Below are positions 404 to 41,833 of a stretch of 64,000 nt of DNA, piece after piece. Both the position numbers and the translations under genes were made by a program. The notes below the pieces were generated by a model. It did not search any database, was not told the origin of the DNA, and saw only the letters and a program-made list of their open reading frames with translations. The stretch covers positions 15,932-79,931 of the forward strand of contig DASSJM010000061.1 in assembly GCA_035691205.1 (NCBI GenBank). The letters run 5' to 3'. This stretch comes from Actinomycetota bacterium (GTDB lineage: Bacteria; Actinomycetota; UBA4738; HRBIN12). Within the stretch, counting starts at the first letter, position 1; each line of letters begins with the position of its first letter.

Positions 404-2146
404 GTGACGGTCGACGGCCAGCCGAGACGGGAGCGACGGGGTCGCCTGGCCGGGTGGGTCCCTGGACTTGGCGTCGTCGCGACCTACCGGCGATCCTGGC
501 TCGGACGCGACCTCGCCGCCGGCCTCGTCCTGACCGCGTTCCTCGTTCCGGTCGGCATGGGGTACGCGGAGGCCTCGGGCCTGCCGGCGAGTACGGGCTT
601 GTACGCGACGATGGTCCCGCTGCTCGCGTACGCGATCTTCGGCCCCTCCCGGATCCTGGTGCTCGGGCCCGACTCGTCGCTCGCTCCGATGATCGCGGTG
701 ACGGTCGTGCCCCTGGCCCACGGCGACCCCGACCAGACCGTGGCGCTGGCCGGCATGCTCGCACTGTTCGTCGGGCTCCTGCTCGTCGGGGCAGGGCTGG
801 CACGCCTGGGGTACCTGACCGACCTGCTCTCGCTCCCGATCCGCTACGGGTACCTGAACGGGATCGCGTTGACGGTGATCGTGAGCCAGCTCCCGAAGGT
901 CTTCGGGTTCTCCACGGACGCAGACGGCCTCGTGCCGCAGGCGGTCGCCTTCGTCGAGGGGGTCGTGGACGGGCAGACCGTGGGCGCCGCGCTCGCGGTC
1001 GGGGCGGTCTCGATGGCCATCGTCATCGTGGGTCGCCGGTACGTACCGGGCGTGCCCGCGGTGCTCGTCGCGGTCATCGTCGGGATCGCGGCGGTCGCCG
1101 TGTTCGATCTCGGCGGCGTGGTGGACGTGGTGGGTCCCCTCCCGGAGGGGCTGCCGTCGTTCGCCGTCCCGTCCGTCGACGTCGCGGACCTCGCCACGCT
1201 CGCGGCCGCCGCGCTGTCGATCGCGCTGGTCGCCTTCGCGGACACGAGCGTGCTCTCGCGAACCTTCGCAGCGCGGCTCGGCGATGACGTCGATCCGAAC
1301 CGGGAGATGATCGCGCTCGGCCTGGCCAACGCCGCCGGCGGTCTGTTCCAGGGCTTCCCGATCTCGAGCAGCGCGTCGAGGACGCCCGTGGCCGAGTCCG
1401 CGGGAGCCCGGACACAGCTCACCGGTGTGGTCGGCGCGGTCGCGATCGCCCTGCTCCTCGTGTTCGTCCCGGGCCTGCTCCGGAACCTGCCGCAGGCGAC
1501 CCTGGGCGCGATCGTCATCGTCGCCGCGACGAGCCTCGTCGAGGTCAGGGGGGTGCGCCGCCTGTGGCGGATCCGTCCGGCCGAGTCCTGGCTCTCGCTC
1601 GTGTGCTTCCTCGGCGTCGCGCTGCTCGGGGTGATCCCCGGGATCTTCCTCGCGATCGCCCTCGCGCTGGCGCAGTTCGTGCGGCGCGCGTGGATCCCAC
1701 ACGATGCGGTGCTCGGTCGGGTCGCCGGCCTGAAGGGCTACCACGACATCACGCGGCACCCCGAGGGCCTGCAGATCCCAGGCCTCGTGCTCTACCGGTG
1801 GGACGCCCCCCTGTTCTTCGCGAACGCCGCGCGGTTCCGCGAGCGGGTGCTCCGACAGGTCCGGCATGCCGACCCGCCGGCGCGATGGGTCGTGGTGGCC
1901 GCCGAGCCGATCACGGACGTCGACGCGACCGCGGCCCGCACCCTCGCCGACCTGCTCGGCGATCTCGAGGCACGTGACGTCCGGTTCGTGTTCGCCGAGC
2001 TGAAAGGCGGGGTCTGGGACCAGCTCAAGGTCGATGGGCTCGCCGAGCGCATCGGCGAGCGGTATCGGTTCCCGACGATCGGAACGGCCGTCCACGCGTA
2101 CGTGGCTGAGACGGACACCCCCTGGGTGGATCCCAACCCCGACTGA
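404..2146 (+). CDS. SulP family inorganic anion (sulfate) transporter with C-terminal STAS domain
   Basis: The 580-aa polytopic membrane protein has an N-terminus like SulP (RRSWLGRDLAAGLVLTAFLVPVGMGYAEASGLP) and a C-terminal STAS-like region. The exact start is uncertain. Confidence 0.8.
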   Translation: MTVDGQPRRERRGRLAGWVPGLGVVATYRRSWLGRDLAAGLVLTAFLVPVGMGYAEASGLPASTGLYATMVPLLAYAIFGPSRILVLGPDSSLAPMIAVTVVPLAHGDPDQTVALAGMLALFVGLLLVGAGLARLGYLTDLLSLPIRYGYLNGIALTVIVSQLPKVFGFSTDADGLVPQAVAFVEGVVDGQTVGAALAVGAVSMAIVIVGRRYVPGVPAVLVAVIVGIAAVAVFDLGGVVDVVGPLPEGLPSFAVPSVDVADLATLAAAALSIALVAFADTSVLSRTFAARLGDDVDPNREMIALGLANAAGGLFQGFPISSSASRTPVAESAGARTQLTGVVGAVAIALLLVFVPGLLRNLPQATLGAIVIVAATSLVEVRGVRRLWRIRPAESWLSLVCFLGVALLGVIPGIFLAIALALAQFVRRAWIPHDAVLGRVAGLKGYHDITRHPEGLQIPGLVLYRWDAPLFFANAARFRERVLRQVRHADPPARWVVVAAEPITDVDATAARTLADLLGDLEARDVRFVFAELKGGVWDQLKVDGLAERIGERYRFPTIGTAVHAYVAETDTPWVDPNPD

Positions 2147-2178
2147 GGCGTGTCGGTGCGGGCGACTACCGTCGCCTC

Positions 2179-2547
2179 ATGGAAGCGTCCACGCGCGACG
2201 TTCGACCCGCCCGCGGCCGAGCCGGGGAGGATGCCGCGCTCCGCGTCTACGAGCGCCGAGGGTACGCCCTGGTCGTGCGCAACTGGCGATGCGCGATCGG
2301 CGAGCTGGACCTCGTGCTGTGCAGACGCGACACGCTCGTCGTGTGCGAGGTGAAGACGCGCAGCGGTTCCGCCTTCGGCGGGGGGTACGAGGCGGTGACG
2401 TGGTCCAAGAGGCGGAAGCTCCGACAGCTCGCGGAGGCGTTCCTGCTGGACGCTGGGGCGCGGGTCGGGGCCGTGCGGTTCGACGTTGCCAGCGTGTGGC
2501 TCGGGCCTGGCGGTGCGGACGTCGAGATATTCGAGGACGCGTTCTGA
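2179..2547 (+). CDS. yraN: YraN family (UPF0102) endonuclease-like protein
   Basis: 122 aa with the motif ELDLV...VCEVKTR..., and it sits immediately upstream of the Mg-chelatase-like ATPase as in other actinobacteria. Confidence 0.8.
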   Translation: MEASTRDVRPARGRAGEDAALRVYERRGYALVVRNWRCAIGELDLVLCRRDTLVVCEVKTRSGSAFGGGYEAVTWSKRRKLRQLAEAFLLDAGARVGAVRFDVASVWLGPGGADVEIFEDAF

Positions 2548-2612
2548 CGGACGGTTGAGGGGGAGCTCCGCGCGCCGGCCATGTCGGTGGCGCGCGCTAG
2601 GGTCGCGCGACC

Positions 2613-4145
2613 GTGTACGGGAAGGTCACCGGCGTCACCGTCGTTGGAGTGCGGGGGTATCCCGTCACCGTTGAGTCGCACGTCGGGCGGGGCCTGCCGT
2701 CCTTGACGCTCACGGGACAGCCCGGGGCGGCGATCCAGGACGCCCGCGAACGGATCCGCCCGGCGATCGAGAGCGCCAGGCTCGAGTGGCCGCTCCGCCG
2801 GGTCGTCGTGAACCTCGTCCCCGGCAACCTGCGCAAGGAGGGTCCCGGACTCGATCTCCCCGTCGCCGTGAGCGTCCTGGCGGCCACCCGGCAGGTCCCC
2901 GAGCGTCGGCTCTCCGGATGGGTGTTCGCCGGCGAGCTCTCGCTGAAGGGAGTGCTCGTCTCGACGCCGGGGGTGCTCTCGGTCGCGATCGCCGCGGAGC
3001 GCGCCGGGCTGCGCGGCGTCGTCGTCCCCGACGCCAACGCCGCCGAGGCCGGCCTCGTCGAGGGCCTCGAGGTCATCGGGGCTCCCACGCTCGCCGAGGT
3101 CGTCGCGTTCCTGCGGGGAGCGTGGCGGCCCGCACCGACGCCGGAGACCCGATCGGAGGGGGTGATCTCCCACCCCGTCGACCTGGCCGAGGTCCGCGGG
3201 CAGGCGCAGGCGCGTCGAGCGCTCGAGGTCGCGGCCGCCGGCGGGCACAACCTCCTGCTGGTCGGATCGCCGGGCGCGGGCAAGACGATGCTGGCCCGGC
3301 GGCTGCCCACCATCCTGCCCGCGATGTCCCGGGACGAGGCGCTGCAGGTCACCCAGCTGCACTCGGTGGCCGGACTCCTCGACGGGGGGCTCGTGCGCGA
3401 GCGACCGTTCCGGTCGCCGCACCACACGGTCTCGCCGGCGGCGCTGCTCGGCGGCGGGTCGACGCGTCTGCGTCCGGGCGAGATCTCGCTCGCGCACCAC
3501 GGCGTGCTGTTCCTCGACGAATTCACCGAGTTCCGCCGGGATGCGGTCGAGGGGCTGCGTCAGCCGCTCGAGGACGGCAGGGTGGTGGTCACCCGGATGA
3601 CGGGAACGGCGGAGTTCCCCGCGCGCTTCACGCTCGTGGCGGCGTCCAACCCATGCCCGTGCGGGTACCGAGGGGACGCCACCCGTCGCTGCTCGTGCCG
3701 GGACGACCGCGTATCGCTCTACTCGGGCAAGCTCTCCGGCCCGCTGCTCGATCGTGTGGACCTGCAGGTCTCGGTCCCGCGGCTCACCCGCCAGGAGCTC
3801 CTCGGCGAGGGAGCGGGAGAGGCCTCGGCGATCGTGCGCGAGCGCGTCGAGGTGGCACGGGACCGTCAGCGGCGCCGATACGCACGCATCGGCTCCCCCT
3901 GCAATGCGCAGCTCCCCGGACCGATCGTTCGGCGCGAGGCCCGGGTCTCCGGCGAGGCGCACGAGATCCTCGCCGAGGCCGTCGACCGGCACGGCCTCAC
4001 GGGTCGCGGCTTCGATCGTGCGCTGAAGGTCGCCCGGACCATCGCGGACCTGGCCGGATCGGATGACGTCGGCCCCGATCACGTCGTCGAGGCCCTGGCG
4101 TATCGTCGGACGCCACCGTCCCTCGAGCTCGAGCATGCCGGCTGA
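2613..4145 (+). CDS. comM: YifB/ComM family Mg-chelatase-like AAA+ ATPase
   Basis: 510 aa with an N-terminal Lon-like domain, a Walker A motif (GSPGAGKT), Walker B (VLFLDEF) and a C-terminal Mg-chelatase subunit ChlI-like region. Confidence 0.9.
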   Translation: MYGKVTGVTVVGVRGYPVTVESHVGRGLPSLTLTGQPGAAIQDARERIRPAIESARLEWPLRRVVVNLVPGNLRKEGPGLDLPVAVSVLAATRQVPERRLSGWVFAGELSLKGVLVSTPGVLSVAIAAERAGLRGVVVPDANAAEAGLVEGLEVIGAPTLAEVVAFLRGAWRPAPTPETRSEGVISHPVDLAEVRGQAQARRALEVAAAGGHNLLLVGSPGAGKTMLARRLPTILPAMSRDEALQVTQLHSVAGLLDGGLVRERPFRSPHHTVSPAALLGGGSTRLRPGEISLAHHGVLFLDEFTEFRRDAVEGLRQPLEDGRVVVTRMTGTAEFPARFTLVAASNPCPCGYRGDATRRCSCRDDRVSLYSGKLSGPLLDRVDLQVSVPRLTRQELLGEGAGEASAIVRERVEVARDRQRRRYARIGSPCNAQLPGPIVRREARVSGEAHEILAEAVDRHGLTGRGFDRALKVARTIADLAGSDDVGPDHVVEALAYRRTPPSLELEHAG

Positions 4146-5388: not shown

Positions 5389-6644
5389 CCGCTCGCGCAG
5401 ACGATCGTAGAGCGCACGGAGCGCGAGAAGGCGTCGGCCGAGTCGGGGACGTCTCCGACGAAGACGTGCCGGGATCCCTCGAGGTGGCCGGCGTCCCACT
5501 CCGTCTTCTGGCGCACGTCGACGACGTCCCCGGCCTCCCCGCGCCCGATCTCCGCCACGAGCTGCTCGACACCGATCGCGGGGTACGAGGCGGTCTCCCG
5601 GCCCGACGCCGCCCAGGTCGCGACCCCGCCCTCGAGGTGGCCGAGCACCGGATCCCACCCGATCCGGTGCAGCTGGGTCGAGGCCTCCACGAGCCCCTCG
5701 TGCGACTCCACCAGGAGGACGATCGGAGTGGCGAACGGGAGCAGCCACCCGACGTACGCCGCGAACGAGGGTTCGAGCGGGACGTTCAGCGAGCCCGGCA
5801 CGTGGGCGCCCGCGAAGTGGGAGCCGTTCCGCGTGTCCACGAGCCAGGCGCCGCCGGCGAGCGCCGCCGCCGCGTCGTCCACCGTCATCGCCGCCGGGAT
5901 CGGGACGGCGCCGAACACGGGCGGCCCGGCGCGGTTGATCGGCGCCATGTGCGCGTAGTAGTCCGGGTACGCCACCAGGCCGGCCAGCTGCTGCCGCACG
6001 AACGCCTCCTCGTCCAGGTCGGCCAGGGCCGGGTTCAGGTGTCGTTCGTCGCCGAGCGTGGAGGTGCGTTCGCTGCTGGGCGGCGCGCTCGCGCAGAAGC
6101 TTCCGGCGCCGTGGGTCGGCAGGAGCAGGACCTGGTCCGGGAGCGCGGAGAGCCGACGCATGGTCCGGAACTGGAGACGCGTGAGCTCGTCGGCGCGCTC
6201 GGGGCCGAGCAGGTCCGTCCGTCCGGCGCTCCCGACGATCAGGCTTCCTCCCGAGAACAGTGCGACGCCCTCGCCATCGAAGTCCCGCAACAGGTAGGAC
6301 GTGTGCTCGGGCGTGTGACCGGGCGTGGCGAGCGCCTCGAGGCTCCCGTCGCCGATCGAGATCCGCGTCCCGTCCTCAACCGGCGTCGTCGGGAAGGCGT
6401 AGCCGCCGGTCGCCGGAGCCAGGATCTCGGCGCCGGTCGCCACCCGGAGCTCCCCCGCCCCGGAGACGTAGTCGTTGTGGACGTGCGTCTCGATGACGTA
6501 TCGGATCCGCGCGTCGCGGGACCGTGCCGTCTCGACGAACCGATCGACGTCTCGCTGTGGGTCGATGACGGCGGCCTCGTCCCCCCAGGACACCACGTAG
6601 CTGTTGTCGCCGAGCCCGGGCGTGACGAACAGGTCGAGCTCCAT
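5277..6644 (-). CDS. MBL-fold metallo-hydrolase fused to two rhodanese domains (persulfide dioxygenase / sulfurtransferase-like)
   Basis: N-terminal MBL motif HVHNDYVSG...TPGHTPEH, followed by two rhodanese modules, the second with an active-site Cys loop (CASGYRS). I chose the internal ATG (MELDLF) because upstream of it the ORF is Arg/Pro-rich and looks non-coding. Confidence 0.75.
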   Translation of the reverse strand: MELDLFVTPGLGDNSYVVSWGDEAAVIDPQRDVDRFVETARSRDARIRYVIETHVHNDYVSGAGELRVATGAEILAPATGGYAFPTTPVEDGTRISIGDGSLEALATPGHTPEHTSYLLRDFDGEGVALFSGGSLIVGSAGRTDLLGPERADELTRLQFRTMRRLSALPDQVLLLPTHGAGSFCASAPPSSERTSTLGDERHLNPALADLDEEAFVRQQLAGLVAYPDYYAHMAPINRAGPPVFGAVPIPAAMTVDDAAAALAGGAWLVDTRNGSHFAGAHVPGSLNVPLEPSFAAYVGWLLPFATPIVLLVESHEGLVEASTQLHRIGWDPVLGHLEGGVATWAASGRETASYPAIGVEQLVAEIGRGEAGDVVDVRQKTEWDAGHLEGSRHVFVGDVPDSADAFSRSVRSTIVCASGYRSSMVASMLAREGVPVRVVSTAGVPRALRLLRGGA

Positions 6645-6722
6645 CCGCGCATCGTACGCTCGCCCCTTGCTTGAATGGCACCCGTCGCGTTGGTACAAGG
6701 TCGGAACCGAACCGGGAGGATC

Positions 6723-7655
6723 ATGACCGCCCGCGAGCTTCCCCCGACCGACGCAGCCCTGATCGAGGGCTTCGTCGACCATCTCAGACTCGAGCGGCAT
6801 CTCGCCGCCGCCACGGTCGAGGCCTACCGCCGCGATCTCACGCAGCTCGGGACGTTCCTGTCTCGGACGCGCCGCGGCCTGCGGGGAGCCGACCTCGATG
6901 ACCTCCGTCGGTTCCTCGCGCAGCTCACGACCCTCGGTTACGCGCGCGCGTCGATCGCCCGGCGGGTCGGGGCCATCCACACCTTCTATCGGTGGGCCCT
7001 GTCCACCGGGGAGGTCGATCGAGACCCCGCCCTGTTGCTCGGCAGGCCGAAGGTGATCTCACGTCTGCCGACCGTCCTGCGGGTTCCCGAGGCCGCGGCG
7101 CTGGTCGAGGCCCCATCCGCGGCGTCGGGCGTCGCCGACCTCGATCGGGCCGTTGCGCTCCGTGACCGGGCGATCCTGGAGCTCATGTACGGATCGGGGC
7201 TGCGCGTCTCCGAGGTCGCCGGCCTCACGCCGGACCGCGTGGACATCCGGCGAGGACGGGTGCTCGTGCTCGGGAAGGGCTCGAAGGAACGCGATGTGCC
7301 GATGTCCGATCCAGCACGGTTCGCGCTCGCCGAGTGGATCGCGCTGGGGCGCCCGCTGATGCTGCCCGAGGGCGGGGCCGAGGCTCTCTTCCTCAACCGC
7401 CGATCCCGGCCGATCGGACCGCGCGACGTTCGACGCCTTGTGGGACGATACGGAGGCTCCACGCTTGCCGGCCGCCGGGTGACCCCGCACACGCTGCGCC
7501 ACTCGTTCGCCACGCACCTGCTCGAGGGAGGAGCCGACATCAGGGTCGTCCAGGAGCTGCTGGGCCACGCGAGCGTGGCGACCACCCAGCGGTACACGCA
7601 CGTCACCCGCTCACGCCTGTTCGAGGCGTACGAGCGGAGCCATCCGAGGGCCTGA
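6723..7655 (+). CDS. xerC: Tyrosine recombinase XerC
   Basis: Catalytic signature [39 protein letters not shown] with an N-terminal SAM-like domain. A GGAGGA ribosome-binding site precedes the internal ATG at 6723. Confidence 0.9.
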
Positions 7656-8524
7656 TGGCGCGCGCGAAGACCGAGCCCGCCAAGGAGCTCAAGGCCAAGC
7701 GGACCTCGCGAGCCAAGCCGGAGGAAGAGGGACCTTCGCCCGAACGGGCCCCGATCGACGAGCGCGCCCTGGAACTCTCGCGCCTGTGGGACGAGTACAA
7801 GGGTGCCGGCGGCACCGACGAGGTCCGCGATCGCCTGATCCTGCATTACGCGCCGCTCGTGAAGTACGTCGCGAGCCGCGTCGCGACCGGCCTGCCCGCC
7901 AGCGTGGAGCAGGCCGACCTGGTGTCGTACGGGATGTTCGGCCTGATCGACGCGCTCGAGAAGTTCGACCCGGCTCGGGGCAACAAGTTCGAGACCTACG
8001 CGATCCCCCGGATCAAGGGCGCGATCATCGACGAGCTGCGGGCGATGGACTGGGTCCCGCGCTCGGTCCGTTACAAGGCGCGCGAGATCGAGAGGGCCCA
8101 CACGGACCTCGAGACCCAGCTCAAGCGCGCGCCCACCGAGAACGAGCTCGCGGGTCGCCTCGGGATGTCGCTCCGCGAGCTGCACGACGTCGTCAACCAG
8201 ATCTCCTTCGTGCAGGTCCTGCAGCTGGACGAGATCCTCGCGGTGGGCGGGGATCGCGGGGAGCAGGTCTCGCTGATGGACACGCTGGCCGATCGCACGG
8301 TGGATCCGACGACCGGCCTCGAGGGCCAGGCGACGCGGGGCTTGCTCTCGGCGGCGATCAACTCGCTATCCGAGCGCGAGAAGATCGTCGTCACCCTCTA
8401 CTACTTCGAGGGCCTCACCCTCGCGGAGATCGGCGACGTCCTCGGCGTCACCGAATCGCGCATCTGCCAGATCCACACGAAGGCCGTCGGACAGCTCCGG
8501 CTCCAGCTGGCCGAGAACGAGTAG
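7655..8524 (+). CDS. whiG: FliA/WhiG family RNA polymerase sigma factor (sigma-28 type)
   Basis: 289 aa with sigma regions 2, 3 and 4 ([15 protein letters not shown]...; [15 protein letters not shown]; region 4 [24 protein letters not shown]). The start overlaps the xerC stop (TGATG). The whiG symbol is by analogy to the Streptomyces locus near rpsB. Confidence 0.8.
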
Positions 8525-9173: not shown

Positions 9174-10712
9174 GTGCGGCCCCGGCACCCGGAGGAGCTC
9201 CTGTCACCCACCCCGAACCGCCCGTCGTCGCGCGCCGCCCTCGCGGCCGGGCTGACGATCCTCGTGCTCGCGGCCGTCGCTCCCGGGGCGATCGCGCAGG
9301 AGGCGGACGCCACGTGGCCCCAGTACCAAGGCGGTGCCGCGCACCCCGGGGCGCTCGCGGAGGGACCGCAGCCGCCCTTCCGCGTGCGCTGGATGCTCCC
9401 GGCCCCCGCCGGCGAGGCCCTGTCCGCGGCGATCGTCGTCGGCGACCGGGCGATCTCCGTCGGGAGCGAGGCCGTGTACGCCATCGATCTGCAGACCGGC
9501 GTGGAGGAGACGATCGCGGCGCGCTCGGGTGGACCGCTGTCGGTGCCGGCGTTCGCGACCGTGGGCTCGACCCCGATGGTCCTGTACCTGGAGGGGCCGG
9601 AGGCGTCGGGGGCCGGGGCGTCGCCCACCCCATCGGGGACACCCTCTCCGACCCAAGCGACGACGACCTCGCCCGGAAGCGAGGCGGTCGGGCCGGACGA
9701 GGAGGTGCCTGCTTCCTTCTTGGTCGCGGTGTCGCTCGAGGACCGCTCCGAGCTCTGGCGGGTGCCGTTCGGGGCGACCACCCGCAGCGGGGTCACGGTG
9801 GACGGCGGAACCGCCTACGTCGGCGATCAGCAGCGGCACGTCGTCGCCATCGCGCTCGAGGACGGATCCGTCGTATGGACGGCCGATGTCCCCGGGCGCG
9901 TCGACGCGCCGGTCGCCGTCGCCGACGGCCGTGTCTACGTCGTCGCCCGAGACGGTGCGGCCGGGCAGGCCACGATCGTCGCGCTCGACGCCGCGACGGG
10001 GGAGCGCGCCTGGGCCGTCGTGCCGCAGGCGACGTCGACCCTGGCGTCGGCGCCGTCGGCGGGCGGGGGATCCGTCTTCGTGGGTGCCGCCGACCGCCTC
10101 GTGCGGTCCCTGGCGCCCGAGGACGGCGCCGAGCGCTGGACGTCCCTCGTCCTCTCGTTCTTCACGCCGTTCACCGCGCTCGCCGTCGCCGAGGGGGCGG
10201 TGTACGCCGCGGACGTCACCGCGGGGCTCTATCGACTGGACGCGGCCGATGGGCGTCGGCGATGGGGCTTCCAGCTGAACGACCGCGTCATCCGCAGCGC
10301 GCCGGTCGTCTCGGGTTCGACGGTCCTGTTGGGCCTGAACGACGGCCGCCTCGTCGCGATCGACACGGACTCTGGGCATCTCGTGTGGGAGTCCGAGGCC
10401 TCACCGGGGCTCGTCGGGACGATCGCGCTGGGAACGGACGTGGTGGTCGCCGTCAAGGGCGGCCGGGACGCCGGGCTGATCGCGTTCGAGCATGACCCCG
10501 ACGGCGCGCTCGTCGATGTCCCCTCGCCGACCGAGTTGGACGCTGGCACCACGTTCTCCCGCTACGGCATCGCGGCGGCGATCGTCCTCATCCTGGCGCT
10601 GATCCCGGGGATCGCGCTGCGGCGACGGCTGGGTCCGGTCGACCTGACGGGCGGCGTCGACCTGGACGACGAGGAACCGGCGGGCGGAACCGATGAGGGG
10701 GTCGAGGGGTGA
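9174..10712 (+). CDS. PQQ-like beta-propeller repeat protein (BamB-like), secreted with C-terminal TM anchor
   Basis: A signal peptide, repeated ...VYA.D..TG...W motifs typical of PQQ/BamB propeller blades, a central low-complexity P/S/T linker, and a C-terminal hydrophobic helix. Confidence 0.65.
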
Positions 10713-11677
10713 GCGGGAAGAAGCGGCCACCACGACGGCCCGCGCAGGCCCGGCCCGTGCCCGCGAAGCGCGCCGAGCCGCCCGCCGAGCCTCGTCGCCC
10801 GTTCGGGAGCGCGCTCTTCGGCCAGGCGAGCTCGGTGATGCCTCCGATCGGGCGATCGCTCGGCCGCGGGCTGCTGACGATCGTGTCCTCGCCGGTGCTG
10901 GTGGTCGTCGCCCTCGTGCTGGTGCCGCTCGCTTGGTTCGGGTTGCTCGCGATCGGCTTCGAGGGCTCGCCGTCACGACTGGTGGACGTGCTCGCCCTGC
11001 CGCCGATCTCGACCTACTTCGACCTGGGAACCGCCGTGAGTATCGTGGGGTTCGGACCGGCGTTCCTGGTGTTCACGGGCGCGGCGATCCTGATCCGCAG
11101 CCTCGTCTACGCGGTGCTCACCGGCGTGATCCTCGAGGCGCTCGAGGACGGCCGCGTCAGCTCGTACGGCGTCCTGCGCGGCGTCGGCGCGATCCCCACC
11201 GTCGTGGTCGTGCAGGTCCTCTCCTTCTCCCTGATCGTCGTCGGGAACCTGATCTTCCCGATCCTGGGGCCCGGGCTCGGCTTCCTCGCGTTCGTCGCCG
11301 CGCTCGTGGCCGGGCTGTTCTTCCTCGGCTTCGCGCCCACGGCGGCGATCCGTCAGCGCCGCGGGATCACGGAGACCCTGCGCCGCTCCGGACGAGCCGC
11401 GATGCTCCCGGGGTCCCGACAGCTCCTGTTCTGCACCCTGTACTTCTTCGTCGCCCTGCCCGTGGTGGTCGGGTTCGCGCCAGGAGGGTCCGACGTCACC
11501 GCCAACCCGACGCTCGGGACCTGGATCTTCGCCCTCGCGGTGAACGTGCTGCACCTGGGTTTCATGGCGGCCCTGTCGTACCGCTGGATCGTGGCCGAGC
11601 CCTCGGTGCCGGACCAGCCGGTCCGACGTCGGAAGGCCGCGCGTCAGCCCTCGGCCCGTCCGCGCGGCCGGCGGTAG
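10709..11677 (+). CDS. Hypothetical polytopic membrane protein
   Basis: The 322-aa ORF has at least six predicted TM helices and strong third-position GC bias. A GTG start overlaps the upstream stop (GTGA). I recognised no motif. Confidence 0.5.
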
Positions 11678-36815: not shown

Positions 36816-37931
36816 ATGTCCCATGACGTCCGACGAGCCAGGCACGGTATGACGCTCAAGCGCGTCGTCGGACTCGTCTTCTCCGTTGCGATCGTCGTCG
36901 GGATCTTCGCCTATGCGATCCCGCGCATCGCGGACTACTCAGCCGTCTGGGCGACGATCCAGAACCTCACGCCGATCGAGTTCGTATCGCTTCTCGCCGC
37001 GACGGTGCTGAACCTGTTCACGTACTGGCTCGCGAACATGGCGGCGCTGCCGGGGCTCCGTCTCGGGCCCGCCGCCGTCGTCACCCAGACGACCACGTCG
37101 GTGGCCAACACCCTGCCGGCGGGCGGGGCGATCGCGGTCGGACTCACGTTCTCCATCCTGCGGTCGTGGGGCTTCACGGCGCAGTCGATCACCCTGTACA
37201 TCGGGGTCACCGGCGTGTGGAACGTGTTCGTGAAGCTCGCCCTGCCGGTGGTCTCGTTGGCCTTGCTGGCTCTCACCGGGCAGGTGAGCCCGGCCCTGGT
37301 GGTGGCCTCGATCGTCGGGCTGGCGGTGTTGATCGTCGCGGTCGTCCTGTTCTCGCTCGCGCTGTCGAGCAAGGAGTTCGCGCGTCGGATCGGCGAGGGC
37401 CTCGGGCGGCTCGTGTCGTGGTTCCGCAAGCGCTTCCGCAAGGCGGCGGTCACGGGTTGGGGGGAGCACGCGGTCGCGTTCCGCAGACGGACGATCGTCC
37501 TGGTCGCCGGGCGCTGGATCAGGATCACCCTCACGACCATCGCGTCCCAGCTCGCGTTGTGGCTCGTCCTGCTGCTGTGCCTTCGCCACGTCGGGATCTC
37601 AGAGCAGGAGGTCTCCACCCTGCAGACCCTGGCCGTGTTCGCGTTCGGCCGGCTGCTCGGGGCGATCCCGATCACGCCGGGTGGCCTCGGCGTGATCGAG
37701 CTCGGGTACATCGGCGGACTGGTGGCGGCCGGCGGGAACGAGGCCCAGGTGGTGGCGGCGGTCCTGCTGTTCCGCGCGCTGACCTACGGGATCCAGATCC
37801 CGATCGGCGCGTTCACGTACCTGATCTGGCGCGCGAAGCGGAGCTGGAGGCTGGAGATCCACCCCGACATCGCCGGGGAGGCCCAGCTCGAGCCCGAGGC
37901 CGAGGTCGGAACCGACTTCCTCCCCGCGTAG
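36816..37931 (+). CDS. Flippase-like membrane protein (lysylphosphatidylglycerol synthase TM-region / UPF0104 family)
   Basis: About 370 aa with about eight TM helices. The C-terminal GRLLGAIPITPGGLGVIELGYIGGL motif is characteristic of the MprF-like translocase domain. The start is the ATG at 36816 or at 36849. Confidence 0.6.
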   Translation: MSHDVRRARHGMTLKRVVGLVFSVAIVVGIFAYAIPRIADYSAVWATIQNLTPIEFVSLLAATVLNLFTYWLANMAALPGLRLGPAAVVTQTTTSVANTLPAGGAIAVGLTFSILRSWGFTAQSITLYIGVTGVWNVFVKLALPVVSLALLALTGQVSPALVVASIVGLAVLIVAVVLFSLALSSKEFARRIGEGLGRLVSWFRKRFRKAAVTGWGEHAVAFRRRTIVLVAGRWIRITLTTIASQLALWLVLLLCLRHVGISEQEVSTLQTLAVFAFGRLLGAIPITPGGLGVIELGYIGGLVAAGGNEAQVVAAVLLFRALTYGIQIPIGAFTYLIWRAKRSWRLEIHPDIAGEAQLEPEAEVGTDFLPA

Positions 37932-37932
37932 C

Positions 37933-38610
37933 TCATCCGTCGCGCACGCTCTCGCGCCGCCGCAGGGCGACGTCGTGGATCTCGGTCACCAGGGCGGCGC
38001 AGCCCAGGGCGATGCCGGTCCCGAGCAGGACGCCCGCGAGGACGTCGGAGAACCAGTGCGCGAGAAGGTAGACGCGCGAGCTCGCCATGACGAACGCGAA
38101 CGCGGCGGCCGCGAACTCCCATCGTCGACGTTTGGGCCCAGGCGCCAGCAGGACCAGGACGAACGCCACGGCGATCGAGGCACCGGCCACCGCGTGACCC
38201 GACGGGAAGGAGAACCCGACGGTCTCGACGAGCGAACCGGGCGGGCGCCCACGGTGGAAGAAGTCCTTGGCCACCAGCACGGTGATCTCGGCGACCGCCC
38301 AGGTCAGGAGCCAGGTGGCGAGCGCTCGCCAGCGCGTCCTGGACAGGAGCCACAGCGCCACGACGATGCGGAACGGGATCGTGACCACGCCGCTCCCGAT
38401 GAGGTTGAGCAGGCGAGCCACGGCCGTGAGCGGCTCGTTCCGGATGTCGACCATCGCGTGGGAGATCGCGAGGTCCCATTCGCCCAGGAACGGCAGGGTG
38501 GTCTCCGGTGCCGCGGCGGGTGGGTGGCGACCCACCGCGACGAAGACGAAGACCGTCGCTGCGAGGAGCGCGATCGCCCACCAGAAGGCCCGGCGGTGGT
38601 CGGTGAGCAC
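37933..38610 (-). CDS. PAP2 family lipid-phosphate phosphatase (membrane)
   Basis: All three PAP2 motifs are intact: KDFFHRGRPP, FPSGHA, SRVYLLAHWFSD. Confidence 0.8.
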   Translation of the reverse strand: MLTDHRRAFWWAIALLAATVFVFVAVGRHPPAAAPETTLPFLGEWDLAISHAMVDIRNEPLTAVARLLNLIGSGVVTIPFRIVVALWLLSRTRWRALATWLLTWAVAEITVLVAKDFFHRGRPPGSLVETVGFSFPSGHAVAGASIAVAFVLVLLAPGPKRRRWEFAAAAFAFVMASSRVYLLAHWFSDVLAGVLLGTGIALGCAALVTEIHDVALRRRESVRDG

Positions 38611-38613
38611 TTC

Positions 38614-39198
38614 TCAGTCCTCGCCCACGCACGGCGGGGCTTCGGCGCCGCAGAGCGTGAGTCCCCATCCCTCCTCGACGAGGTCCACCACCTCCGCCCT
38701 CGGCAGGAACGTCAGGGCGTCGTCGGCCTCGAACGCGAGCGTCGCGGCCTGCGCGACGTCGAGGAATCGGTATCGGTAGGTTACGCAGCCGCCGACGAAC
38801 ACGAAGTGCCGATCGGCGGCGTACGGGGTGACGCTGATCGATTCGCGGTACACCCGCACGTCGAGCTCGCCCGAGGCCCTCGTCACCTCCTCGAGGCCGG
38901 CGACGTCGCAGCTCGGCGCGAGCACGACCTCGACCGAGTGGATCCCGGCCCGGTCCGAGTCCAACCAGAACCGCGCGGTGCCGTTGCGCATCTCGGAGCC
39001 GCCGTATCCCCATCCCGGCGGGAACAGGCGGATACACGGGAGGAGCGTCGCCGAGGGGACGGATTGCGCCATCAAGATGAAGGGCGCCGCGTCGTCCGGC
39101 TGACACAGCACCTCCTCCGAACGCGCCGAGCCCGCCGCGCACCCTGAGAGCGTGACGGCGACCGCGATCAGGGCGAGGACCCTGGCCGATGGGCTCAC
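38614..39198 (-). CDS. Cys-rich lipoprotein of unknown function
   Basis: The GTG start overlaps the upstream stop (GTGA). A lipobox (AVAVTLSGC) is present. Six further Cys suggest disulfides, and third-position GC bias is strong. Confidence 0.55.
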   Translation of the reverse strand: MSPSARVLALIAVAVTLSGCAAGSARSEEVLCQPDDAAPFILMAQSVPSATLLPCIRLFPPGWGYGGSEMRNGTARFWLDSDRAGIHSVEVVLAPSCDVAGLEEVTRASGELDVRVYRESISVTPYAADRHFVFVGGCVTYRYRFLDVAQAATLAFEADDALTFLPRAEVVDLVEEGWGLTLCGAEAPPCVGED

Positions 39199-40880
39199 GC
39201 GAACACCGCCCAGTTGTTCACGACCAGCAGGAGCGCCAGCATGAGGACCAGCACGACCCCGAGCGTCAGGGTCACCCGGCGGATGCTCCAGCGCTGGATC
39301 GCTACCGGCGCACGGTCGGGGGCGAGCCGGCGGAAGCGTGCCAGCAGGTCCCGGCCGTCGCGCTTGAGGTGCGCCCGCAGCTGGGTGGGGCTCGCGACCC
39401 CGCGGGTCGCGGCGAACGCCTCGGCGAGTTCGTCCTCGGTGAAGAAACTCGTGGCCCGCTGGTAGACGCGGTCGGCGTCGGTGCGGAGCGCGAGGACCAG
39501 CATCATGTTGGCCAGGTCGACGGCCTGGCGCCACGGCGACGGACGGACCTGGACGAAGAAGACGTCGATCAGCTTGAGCTGGCCGTCCTGCACCATGAGG
39601 TTCGCCGGCTTGATATCTCGGTGGGCGAGCCCCTCGTCCCAGAGGCGTCGGACCAGCATGAGGCCCTGCTCGATGATCGAGTCGTCGACGTCCGCCTCGC
39701 TGATCTCGACGGCGCCGTCGAAGAACTCCATCACGATCATGTACTCGCGCTCGGGGGTGATCTCCACGACCCCGTACGGTGTGGGGGAGGGGAGCCCGAG
39801 GTCCTGTAGGAGCCGAAGGGTGTAGTCCTCGTACTCCACGAACCGCCGGACCGACGTGAACCGGCTCTCGTCCTCCAGGGCCCCGTACAGGATCGTCCGA
39901 CCGAGCTTGTACCAGCGGTCGGCGCGGACGTGGCTCTTCGCGTAGAGCTTGGCGAACAGGTACCGCTCGGGCTGGCCGCCGCCGGCGGCGATGCGCAGCC
40001 GCAAGGGGGTGGAGCCACCCGAGGCCTCCAGCCCGACCGGCTTCAGGTCGAGCACCTCCATGTCGAGCTGGTCGCGCACCCCCGCGACGATCGCCTCGCC
40101 CCGACGACCCCCGACGTCCAGGTGCGCGGCCTTGCCCCTCCCATAGGTCACGGGGAAGACGTCGTTCGGCGTGAACAGGCGGAAGGCGACCAGACCGATC
40201 GCGACCCCGAAGATCGCCCCGAACACGGCGTCCGTTGGGAACTCGACGGCCAGGTAGATGCGCGCGAGCCCGACCAGCCCGAGGACGATCCCGATCGCCC
40301 ACTTGGTCCGGTAGCGGGGCCGCCCCGGCACGACCAGGCAGTAGGCCATGCCGATCAGCGTCACCGCGAGCCCGGCCATCGGCCGTGATGGCATCGAGAA
40401 GTCCTCCCAGGAGGCGAGGATCCTGACATCGAGGGGTCGCGGGCGGCCCATGACGACCGACAGGTCGTAGGCCAGCACACCGGTGACGATCAGTGCGCCG
40501 AGGAACACGAACAGATGCCGCCACCTCCGAAAGGCGATCAGGGCGCCGATGGTCCCCCATCGCAGGATCCGGATCGTCCAGCTCAGCGCCAGCACGTTCA
40601 CGAGCTTCATCGCATCGGTGAGCCACGGGGTCCGCAGCTCGGCGATCCACCGGAGCACGGCGGACTCCAAGCGCTGGAACACGTCCGCCACCGTGGGGAG
40701 CAGCAGGGCGCCGGCGAACACGAGCAGGAAGTAGCCGGCCATGATCAGCCAGAAGCGTCCGGACCGCCCCAGGTCTCTCGGGAGCGGCGGCGGCTCGCCG
40801 GAGGGCCGACGACGCCGGGTCCGGCCACCGGGCAGGTGCCGCTCGTCGGCGACGACTCGAGGATCCCGGGCGGCGTCCAT
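39195..40880 (-). CDS. Membrane protein fusing a degenerate PAP2-like domain to an ePK/Kdo-type protein kinase-like domain
   Basis: The N-terminal 6-TM region has PAP2-like motifs with the catalytic residues substituted (GRPRP; PSRP instead of PSGH; ARIYLAVEFPTD, with His replaced by Glu). The C-terminus has a kinase fold (FAKLY lysine, catalytic loop HRDIKPANLMV, LIDVFF in place of DFG) and a terminal TM helix. Confidence 0.7.
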   Translation of the reverse strand: MDAARDPRVVADERHLPGGRTRRRRPSGEPPPLPRDLGRSGRFWLIMAGYFLLVFAGALLLPTVADVFQRLESAVLRWIAELRTPWLTDAMKLVNVLALSWTIRILRWGTIGALIAFRRWRHLFVFLGALIVTGVLAYDLSVVMGRPRPLDVRILASWEDFSMPSRPMAGLAVTLIGMAYCLVVPGRPRYRTKWAIGIVLGLVGLARIYLAVEFPTDAVFGAIFGVAIGLVAFRLFTPNDVFPVTYGRGKAAHLDVGGRRGEAIVAGVRDQLDMEVLDLKPVGLEASGGSTPLRLRIAAGGGQPERYLFAKLYAKSHVRADRWYKLGRTILYGALEDESRFTSVRRFVEYEDYTLRLLQDLGLPSPTPYGVVEITPEREYMIVMEFFDGAVEISEADVDDSIIEQGLMLVRRLWDEGLAHRDIKPANLMVQDGQLKLIDVFFVQVRPSPWRQAVDLANMMLVLALRTDADRVYQRATSFFTEDELAEAFAATRGVASPTQLRAHLKRDGRDLLARFRRLAPDRAPVAIQRWSIRRVTLTLGVVLVLMLALLLVVNNWAVFA

Positions 40881-40978
40881 GGGTCCCGGCGACTCTACCC
40901 TGCCACGCGGGCCGTACGGATGCCGCCCGGCGGGCCGCGTGTGAAGATGTCCGCATCGCAGGCAGGCTGGGGGAGCAC

Positions 40979-41833
40979 GTGACGGTGGACGACGCGAAGA
41001 AGGCGAAGGCCCACAAGCATCGCGACGTCGAGGATCGCAACAGTCGCCTGCCCAAGAAGGCCTACGAGAAGGAGCTGCGGCGCCTCCAGGAGGAGCTCGT
41101 CAAGCTCGAGGACTGGGTCGCGGCCGTCGGTGCCCGCATCGTGGTGGTGTTCGAGGGTCGGGACGCCGCGGGCAAGGGCGGCACGATCAAGCGGATCACG
41201 CAGTACATGAACCCCCGGATCACCCGGATCGCCGCCCTGCCCAAGCCGACGGAGCGAGAGCGCACGCAGTGGTACTTCCAGCGCTACATCGACCAGCTAC
41301 CCGCGGCCGGCGAGATCGTCCTGTTCGACCGTAGCTGGTACAACCGGGCCGGCATCGAGAAGGTGCTCGGGTTCTGCACCCCCGATGAGCACCGTCGGTT
41401 CCTTCGCCAGTGCCCGATCGTGGAGCGACTGATCGTGGAGGACGGGATCACCCTCCTGAAGTACTGGTTCTCCGTCTCGGACGAGGAGCAGGAGCGCCGC
41501 TTCCGGGCTCGGATCGACGATCCGATCCGGCGGTGGAAGCTCTCCGACACCGACCTGTACTCGCGCTCGCGCTGGGTCGACTACTCCAGGGCGAAGGACG
41601 AGATGTTCGTCCACACGGATATCCCCGAGGCCCCCTGGTACCTCGTCGAGGCCGACGACAAGCCGAGCGCGCGGCTGAACTGCATCGCCCACCTCCTGTC
41701 CCAGATCCCGTACGAGCCGGTGCGGCACGATCGGCTCGCCGTTCCGGAACGGCAGTCGGACGAGGGGTACGTCCGCCCGCCCCGCGAGGCGTTCACGTAC
41801 GTGCCGGACCACGCGGCCACGCTGCTCGCCTGA
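40979..41833 (+). CDS. Polyphosphate kinase 2 (PPK2) family protein
   Basis: Walker A (FEGRDAAGKGGTIKR) and the PPK2 lid motifs (LFDRSWYNRAGIE...KYWFSVS...RRW). Confidence 0.85.
   Translation: MTVDDAKKAKAHKHRDVEDRNSRLPKKAYEKELRRLQEELVKLEDWVAAVGARIVVVFEGRDAAGKGGTIKRITQYMNPRITRIAALPKPTERERTQWYFQRYIDQLPAAGEIVLFDRSWYNRAGIEKVLGFCTPDEHRRFLRQCPIVERLIVEDGITLLKYWFSVSDEEQERRFRARIDDPIRRWKLSDTDLYSRSRWVDYSRAKDEMFVHTDIPEAPWYLVEADDKPSARLNCIAHLLSQIPYEPVRHDRLAVPERQSDEGYVRPPREAFTYVPDHAATLLA

Follow-up and report, generated by a model that had tools for sequence, protein, structure and literature searches.

A Cys-rich lipoprotein of uncultured Actinomycetota as the probable split-off ectodomain of a degenerate-PAP2/kinase membrane protein

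Membrane kinases encoded in one operon with a lipoprotein are already known in Actinomycetota, and PsbP-like envelope lipoproteins are common. The closest functional analogue of the locus described here is the MtrB-LpqB pair, in which the lipoprotein gene forms an operon with the gene of a membrane kinase and its product acts on the extracytoplasmic side. LpqB is an interaction partner of MtrB and lowers the activity of this kinase (PMC5845573). We have analyzed a stretch of 64,000 nucleotides (hereafter the window) from an Actinomycetota bacterium assembly (GCA_035691205.1, contig DASSJM010000061.1, positions 15,932 to 79,931), in which the gene of a Cys-rich lipoprotein (38614..39198, minus strand) follows a gene that codes for a PAP2-like membrane domain fused to a kinase. 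Both systems are confined to Actinomycetota. However, MtrB belongs to the histidine kinases and works with a response regulator, whereas the present kinase is a RIO/Bud32-like domain of the eukaryotic protein kinase (ePK) fold carried on a PAP2-like membrane domain. The likeness to LpqB is functional only, the present lipoprotein matching no Pfam or NCBIfam family, and, unlike LpqB, it is interchangeable with a covalently fused ectodomain. In the literature we found no account of the PAP2-kinase fusion or of the Cys-rich ectodomain; the only PAP2/kinase module that came up, a PIK-like kinase beside a PAP2 in Segetibacter, is unrelated (10.64898/2026.09.18.752743). Our analysis indicates, with a probability of roughly two in three, that the lipoprotein is the split-off ectodomain, i.e. 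the extracytoplasmic subunit, of the degenerate-PAP2/kinase protein encoded upstream.

The lipoprotein and its link to the upstream kinase gene

The open reading frame (ORF) 38614..39198 of the minus strand (194 codons plus stop, GTG start) is translated into a precursor of 194 amino acids that begins with VSPSARVLALIAVAVTLSGC..., the opening residues being (GTG)-SPSARVLALIAVAVTLSGC. Residues 1-19 (39142..39198, minus strand) make up a predicted signal peptide with the n-region charge R6, the h-region VLALIAVAV, no D, E, R or K between V7 and V15 and a hydropathy of 2.04 over residues 7-25. It runs into the lipobox L17-S18-G19-C20 (39139..39150, minus strand), which fits the consensus [LVI][ASTVI][GAS]-C with the Cys at 15-35, and the N-terminus satisfies the regular expressions of both the G+LPPv2 and the PROSITE PS51257-type patterns. 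Cys20, which is predicted to carry the diacylglyceryl group, would be the first residue of a mature part of 175 residues (C20-D194). The domain that follows it (residues 21-194, 38617..39138, minus strand) contains the six further Cys C32, C55, C97, C138, C183 and C190. The initial annotation had described an LSGC lipobox and a mature domain of about 170 residues with six Cys, and the translation agrees with this. The GC content at codon positions 1, 2 and 3 (0.69, 0.52 and 0.91, in DNA of 71% GC) is that of the flanking genes and, since there are in addition 1102 clusters of homologues, the frame is coding and no chance open frame. An ORF of 813 amino acids that runs in the same frame through the kinase gene (38614..41055) was discarded as an artefact of the 71% GC and does not represent a longer gene. 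Comparison with the homologues thus indicates a lipoprotein precursor with a disulfide-type ectodomain, both the lipidation and the disulfides being predicted.

The start and the stop of the gene had been proposed to be coupled to its neighbours, and this is borne out at both ends. The kinase gene ends in ...GTG TTC GCG TGA, and the lipoprotein GTG lies on this stop codon in a GTGA overlap of 4 nt (39195..39198, minus strand). At the other end, the TGA of the lipoprotein is separated by the spacer GAA, 3 nt, from the GTG of a downstream PAP2 gene (38611..38616, minus strand), upstream of which there is a GAGGA-like Shine-Dalgarno sequence. Among loci of the split type, with kinase and lipoprotein as separate genes, an in-frame start that shares exactly 4 nt with the stop of the kinase gene is available in 64 of 67, and the codon of the lipobox Cys lies 41-92 nt past that stop. 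The gap between lipoprotein and PAP2 was 0-17 nt in 56 of the 57 loci measured. As far as can be read from the DNA, the GTGA overlap is a translational coupling of kinase and lipoprotein. Scans for Rfam families, tRNAs, promoters and terminators gave nothing relevant to the lipoprotein locus; in the whole window (1-64000) neither a tRNA gene nor a match to any Rfam family at the gathering threshold was found.

The initial annotation had suggested checking whether the homologues always neighbour a kinase or PAP2 gene. We compared 82 loci from genomes and metagenomes, in which the neighbours were scored by tblastn with the proteins of the window. The PAP2-like/kinase gene was found directly upstream and on the same strand in 76 of the 77 loci with at least 1 kb of upstream sequence, so that the operon with a membrane kinase known from LpqB is found here too. 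A stand-alone PAP2 was directly downstream in 61 of 78. Within 6 kb, among the 54 loci with full flanks, there was a PplT gene in 40, TruB in 41 and RibF in 41. The adjacency to the kinase is kept where TruB, RibF and PAP2 are gone (L061, L065-L070, L075, L079-L082).

The strongest link comes from natural fusions. In at least nine loci (L066, L068, L069, L073, L075, L077, L078, L080 and L082) a single ORF codes for the PAP2-like domain, the kinase, a transmembrane (TM) helix, a linker of 15-25 residues and the six-Cys domain, in this order, and both the signal peptide and the lipobox are absent. Two more loci (L067 and L079) are apparently of the fused type with frame disruptions. The same architecture was found in the metagenomic protein P0141, of 727 residues, with Pfam PAP2 and RIO1 matches and the Cys-rich domain at residues 575-724, and the junction is alike in P0143, P0166 and P0186. 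Three other apparent fusions (L003, L032 and P0126) were set aside as products of a frameshift or of read-through, the C-terminal helix of the kinase being disrupted and followed by a complete signal peptide and lipobox. Some metagenome-assembled genomes (MAGs) have two units of kinase plus domain, for example L042/L059, or a split one (L055) together with a fused one (L082), where bin contamination is possible. Judged by their sequences, the natural fusions are a Rosetta-stone case linking the Cys-rich domain to the kinase. The in-frame fusions indicate that this domain would be the extracytoplasmic domain of the kinase, supplied in cis or in trans, and the split/fused pair that the two polypeptides would form one functional unit. 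Since no more than 61 of 78 loci have an adjacent PAP2 and most of those of the fused type lack it, the partner appears to be the kinase rather than the stand-alone PAP2. The lipoprotein had originally been proposed as a partner of the kinase/phosphatase pair; the kinase half of that proposal stands, with 76 of 77 adjacencies, 64 of 67 overlaps and the fusions, and the half that concerns the stand-alone PAP2 does not.

The upstream membrane kinase and the other genes of the locus

The lipoprotein gene had been placed between a kinase gene and a PAP2 gene. The position is right, but the upstream gene is itself a PAP2-like/kinase fusion, so that the PAP2 that follows is a second, stand-alone one. 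This upstream gene (39195..40880, minus strand) codes for 561 amino acids, with an N-terminal PAP2-like membrane domain, a kinase and a C-terminal TM helix. The N-terminal domain (residues ~39-238, 40167..40766, minus strand) has the six-helix fold of PAP2 proteins. In place of the catalytic motifs KxxxxxxRP, PSGH and SRxxxxxHxxxD, the alignment to PgpB/YodM gave ...GRPRP without the Lys, PSRP and ARIYLAVEFPTD, i.e. motif C1 is without its Lys, C2 reads PSRP instead of PSGH and C3 reads ARx5E instead of SRx5H. Compared with B. subtilis PgpB/YodM and with LpxE, the C2 His of the fusion is replaced by Pro and that of C3 by Asp or Glu. Throughout 68 orthologues, the C2 replacement was found in 66 and an Asp or Glu at the canonical C3 His position in 67. 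The Arg residues that bind phosphate are retained. With both canonical catalytic His replaced, the domain looks like a pseudo-enzyme. It recalls the LPP-related proteins of eukaryotes (PRG/LPPR), which are catalytically inactive.

The cytoplasmic kinase domain (residues ~255-520, 39321..40118, minus strand) is RIO/Bud32/APH-like. Its motifs, the G-loop SGGSTP, the Lys of FAKLY (Lys311), HRDxKPxN (here HRDIKPAN) and the Asp of IDVFF, were invariant in all 68 orthologues. The HRDxKPxN loop is ePK-like, yet the nearest structures are those of RIO, Bud32 and APH, and the substrate may be a protein, a small molecule or a lipid. The C-terminal TM helix (residues ~533-554, 39219..39284, minus strand) is indicated by a hydropathy of 3.03, by the helix 533-554 of the AlphaFold2 (AF2) model and by the fused junctions. 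From the positive-inside distribution, the N-terminus would be inside, the PAP2 motifs outside, the kinase inside and the last 7 residues outside, with seven TM helices in total. Judged by the residues it has kept and lost, the upstream protein seems to combine a pseudo-phosphatase with a kinase that is still active. The kinase domain is better conserved than the lipoprotein, with mean pairwise distances of 0.25 vs. 0.49. By homologue search the PAP2-like/kinase family is very abundant in MAGs of soil Actinomycetota (at least 8000 candidates). In public records the gene is named "phosphatase PAP2 family protein" or "Bud32/RIO1".

The downstream stand-alone PAP2 (37933..38610, minus strand; 225 residues, six TM helices, Pfam PAP2 at 62.8 bits) has intact KxxxxxxRP, PSGH and SRxxxxxHxxxD motifs and weak NCBIfam matches to PgpB, SepP and LpxE. 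It is a frequent but dispensable member of the operon. Convergent to it lies a gene for a LPG_synthase_TM membrane protein (PplT, flippase-like; 36849..37931, plus strand; Pfam PF03706, 71.6 bits), and PplT genes are also found near the fused-type loci L066 and L080. In L080, about 1 kb upstream of the fused gene, an 805-residue protein (891-3308, plus strand) carries a Kdo/Pkinase-like kinase N-terminal to LPG_synthase_TM, a second case in this neighbourhood of a kinase fused to lipid machinery; kinase-PplT fusions in Actinobacteria were remarked on in the PplT preprint. In L066 an ABC1/UbiB-type atypical kinase of 678 residues (6383-8419, plus strand) overlaps the 3' end of the fused gene, and PplT follows at 9528-10823. 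Two further neighbours were observed. One is the polyphosphate kinase PPK2 (40979-41833, plus strand; TIGR03707, 369 bits), divergent from the kinase operon across 98 nt of intergenic DNA, which is a frequent and positionally mobile neighbour in related loci. The other is a gene for an OpuAC-type glycine-betaine substrate-binding protein of ATP-binding cassette (ABC) transporters, which recurs just upstream of the kinase (L002, 3355-4281; L066, 3290-4303) and is also present in L004 (4922-5944).

Family and predicted fold of the Cys-rich domain

The homologue search with the lipoprotein gave 1102 clusters at 90% identity (E<=1e-3), with 50-68% identity among the matches listed. All of them are labelled hypothetical and lack Pfam domains, and their sources are MAGs of Actinomycetota or metagenomes. 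An exhaustive profile search gave 925 clusters at 50% identity, and a scan of the GTDB representative genomes found the family in 207 species, nearly all of them Actinomycetota MAGs. A third search, with the ectodomain of P0141, gave for the most part lipoproteins of the split type and short pieces, with no full-length fusion and no cultured organism. This is a large, unnamed family with a wide distribution among the uncultured Actinomycetota of soils. A small number of contigs with the module (L029, L079, L081 and that of protein P0304) have been binned under Armatimonadota, Acidobacteriota, Methylomirabilota or Gemmatimonadota; because in sequence they are ordinary members of the actinobacterial family, they are probably mis-binned and not the product of horizontal transfer. 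One match, the 3203-residue protein P0192 with 19 stretches, was spurious and driven by repeats.

In an alignment of 36 sequences (A1), the lipobox Cys and the six other Cys were invariant, and the motifs AQxVPSA, P-C, G-W, WLxSDRxG, GGC (as GGCxTYR) and LCG were conserved. Exactly six Cys were found in 81 of 83 ectodomains from genomes. For 114 homologues with complete N-termini, 104 matched G+LPPv2 and 109 the PS51257-type pattern; the commonest lipoboxes were LASC, LAGC, LVGC, LAAC and LSGC. The domain had been said to contain no recognisable motif, and in fact the lipoprotein of the window had no match in Pfam or NCBIfam, and a sequence-profile search of the PDB gave only noise, with nothing relevant. 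Across the 36 members, Pfam at E<=5 gave only scattered noise, and no profile of the families of the PsbP/Mog1-like group was matched.

Structure prediction and a fold search had also been suggested. The AF2 model is a mixed alpha/beta domain with a mean predicted local distance difference test (pLDDT) score of 76, reaching 79-94 over residues 41-170 and falling below 50 in the terminal segments that bear C32, C183 and C190. The structure matches, all with modest scores, were Tsi3 (4luq_C, 8.1), BT_1490 (3hlz_B, 7.7), LpqN (6e5d_A, 7.7), Mtc28 (4pws_A, 7.4), TplEi (5h7y_A, 7.1), PsbP (2xb3_A, 6.7), DcrB (6e8a_A, 6.5) and Mog1 (5yfg_A, 6.4), with RseB and MucB also among them. Foldseek, independently, ranked PsbP, Apa, Dip2269, DcrB and Mtc28 at the top (best E 3.7e-3). 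Therefore, the predicted fold class is PsbP/Mog1-like, without membership at the sequence level. LpqN/Mtc28/Apa, DcrB and the PsbP/Mog1-like proteins are the closest structural relatives of the modelled domain, at the level of fold only. The present family stands apart from the LpqN/DcrB/PsbP group by its own pattern of six Cys and by its specific motifs AQxVPSA, WLxSDRxG and GGCxTYR. The partner differs too, that of LpqN being a resistance-nodulation-division (RND) transporter and that of the present lipoprotein a kinase.

Proposed mechanism, alternatives and significance

We base the ectodomain reading on what the sequence comparison shows: a lipobox, conserved Cys, a predicted fold class, a kinase gene as the obligatory neighbour and natural fusions. 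According to this reading, the Sec signal peptide with its LSGC would be processed by Lgt and LspA, leaving the protein anchored through diacylglyceryl-Cys20 to the outer leaflet of the cytoplasmic membrane, and the six invariant Cys of the mature domain would presumably form three disulfides. Kinase and lipoprotein would be made in fixed proportion through translational coupling, and in sister lineages the two are a single polypeptide. The ectodomain may dock on the kinase protein from outside the cell, close to what is left of the PAP2 pocket, which faces outward. There it could bind an envelope ligand or a lipid phosphate, or report its presence, and modulate the kinase on the cytoplasmic side; the active PAP2 of the same transcript and the flippase-like PplT neighbour may work on the same lipid pool. 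From the retained Arg residues, the frequent active PAP2, the recurrent PplT, kinase-PplT fusion and ABC1 kinase, and the LpqN/DcrB fold, we infer a possible lipid-phosphate ligand and, with it, a sensing role for the module. A bolder form of this idea would make it a previously unrecognised class of receptor kinase, with the dead PAP2 as the lipid-phosphate receptor (for undecaprenyl-(pyro)phosphate, a lipid-linked precursor or phosphatidylglycerophosphate, PGP), the Cys-rich domain as its lid or co-receptor and the RIO-like kinase relaying the lipid status, in coordination with the active PAP2 and the PplT flippase. We offer it tentatively, at odds of little better than one in five.

Several observations weigh against the ectodomain reading or its details. 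In 44 of the 68 orthologues there is a His one position past the canonical C3 site (the protein of the window has Phe there), and the PAP2-like domain of the family may thus still be capable of some phosphatase or phosphotransferase reaction. In one locus, L004, lipoprotein and PAP2 occur without the kinase, and the OpuAC binding-protein gene takes the kinase's place; this locus is the sole exception. Every homologue comes from MAGs or metagenomes and is annotated as hypothetical. The mirror-tree partial correlations (r 0.41-0.49 with the kinase vs. 0.33 with PAP2) were modest, and we have not counted them as evidence. Finally, L054 (8566-10092) and L063 (1739-3311) carry second, diverged PAP2-kinase paralogues without an adjacent gene for the Cys-rich domain, with 30-37% identity in the PAP2-like part and 47-58% in the kinase part.

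The lipoprotein might instead serve mainly the downstream active PAP2, as an accessory that binds lipids or presents the substrate, handing over to it a lipid phosphate on the outer leaflet, such as undecaprenyl pyrophosphate (C55-PP), PGP or phosphatidic acid (PA). Lipoproteins of the LpqN type have been proposed to help MmpL transporters in a comparable way. The gap of 3 nt to this gene, which stays at 0-17 nt in 56 of 57 loci, the adjacency in 61 of 78 and the survival of lipoprotein and PAP2 without a kinase in L004 speak in its favor. So do two of the fold neighbours, LpqN, which binds lipids, and DcrB, a lipoprotein of the inner membrane; for LpqN an accessory role to MmpL3 and MmpL11 has been described (PMC7458404), and we have counted this on the same side. 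However, 17 loci without an adjacent PAP2 still have the kinase, most loci of the fused type have no PAP2 close by, and in the data examined the fusions of the Cys-rich domain are with the kinase and in no case with a PAP2-only protein. We consider this service to PAP2 rather unlikely. Less probable still is a redox (thiol-disulfide) or metal sensor whose six Cys, especially the C-terminal C-x5/6-C, would change their state and signal oxidative or metal stress of the envelope to the kinase. It shares the link to the kinase with the ectodomain reading, and the Cys are invariant in split and fused forms alike, with flexible terminal segments in the model, but structural disulfides are the simplest explanation of invariant Cys in extracytoplasmic actinobacterial proteins. 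Besides, a CxxC motif is missing, the fold searches matched neither a thioredoxin-like nor a metal-binding fold and the conserved neighbourhood is devoid of redox genes.

Two more explanations carry little weight. An envelope lipoprotein without functional ties could simply have been inherited within the syntenic block infB-rbfA-nrnA-truB ... ribF. The truB-to-ribF block is common to 41 of the 54 loci, and part of the adjacency among close relatives is phylogenetic inertia. Still, the kinase adjacency outlasts the block, as described above, and since inertia explains neither the 4-nt overlap nor the in-frame fusions, a merely syntenic origin is effectively refuted. Hardly credible at all is an immunity protein, as the matches to Tsi3 and TplEi could suggest. 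The sequence identity is 10-12%, the fold is common to PsbP, Mog1, LpqN and DcrB, no toxin, type VI (T6SS) or type VII (T7SS) secretion gene was seen in any neighbourhood, no toxin partner appeared in the 82 loci and the setting is a conserved, housekeeping one.

What is new here is an unnamed ectodomain family (the 925 clusters), for which Pfam and NCBIfam have no model, a so far undescribed architecture that joins a degenerate PAP2, a RIO-like kinase and a C-terminal TM helix, and a clean natural split/fusion pair. At the very least, the definition of a new domain family is justified, and the annotation of the upstream gene as "phosphatase PAP2 family protein" should be corrected. If the lipid-sensing role were true, the module would provide a handle on how uncultured Actinomycetota monitor the lipid phosphates of their envelope, by means of a pseudo-phosphatase recruited as a receptor.
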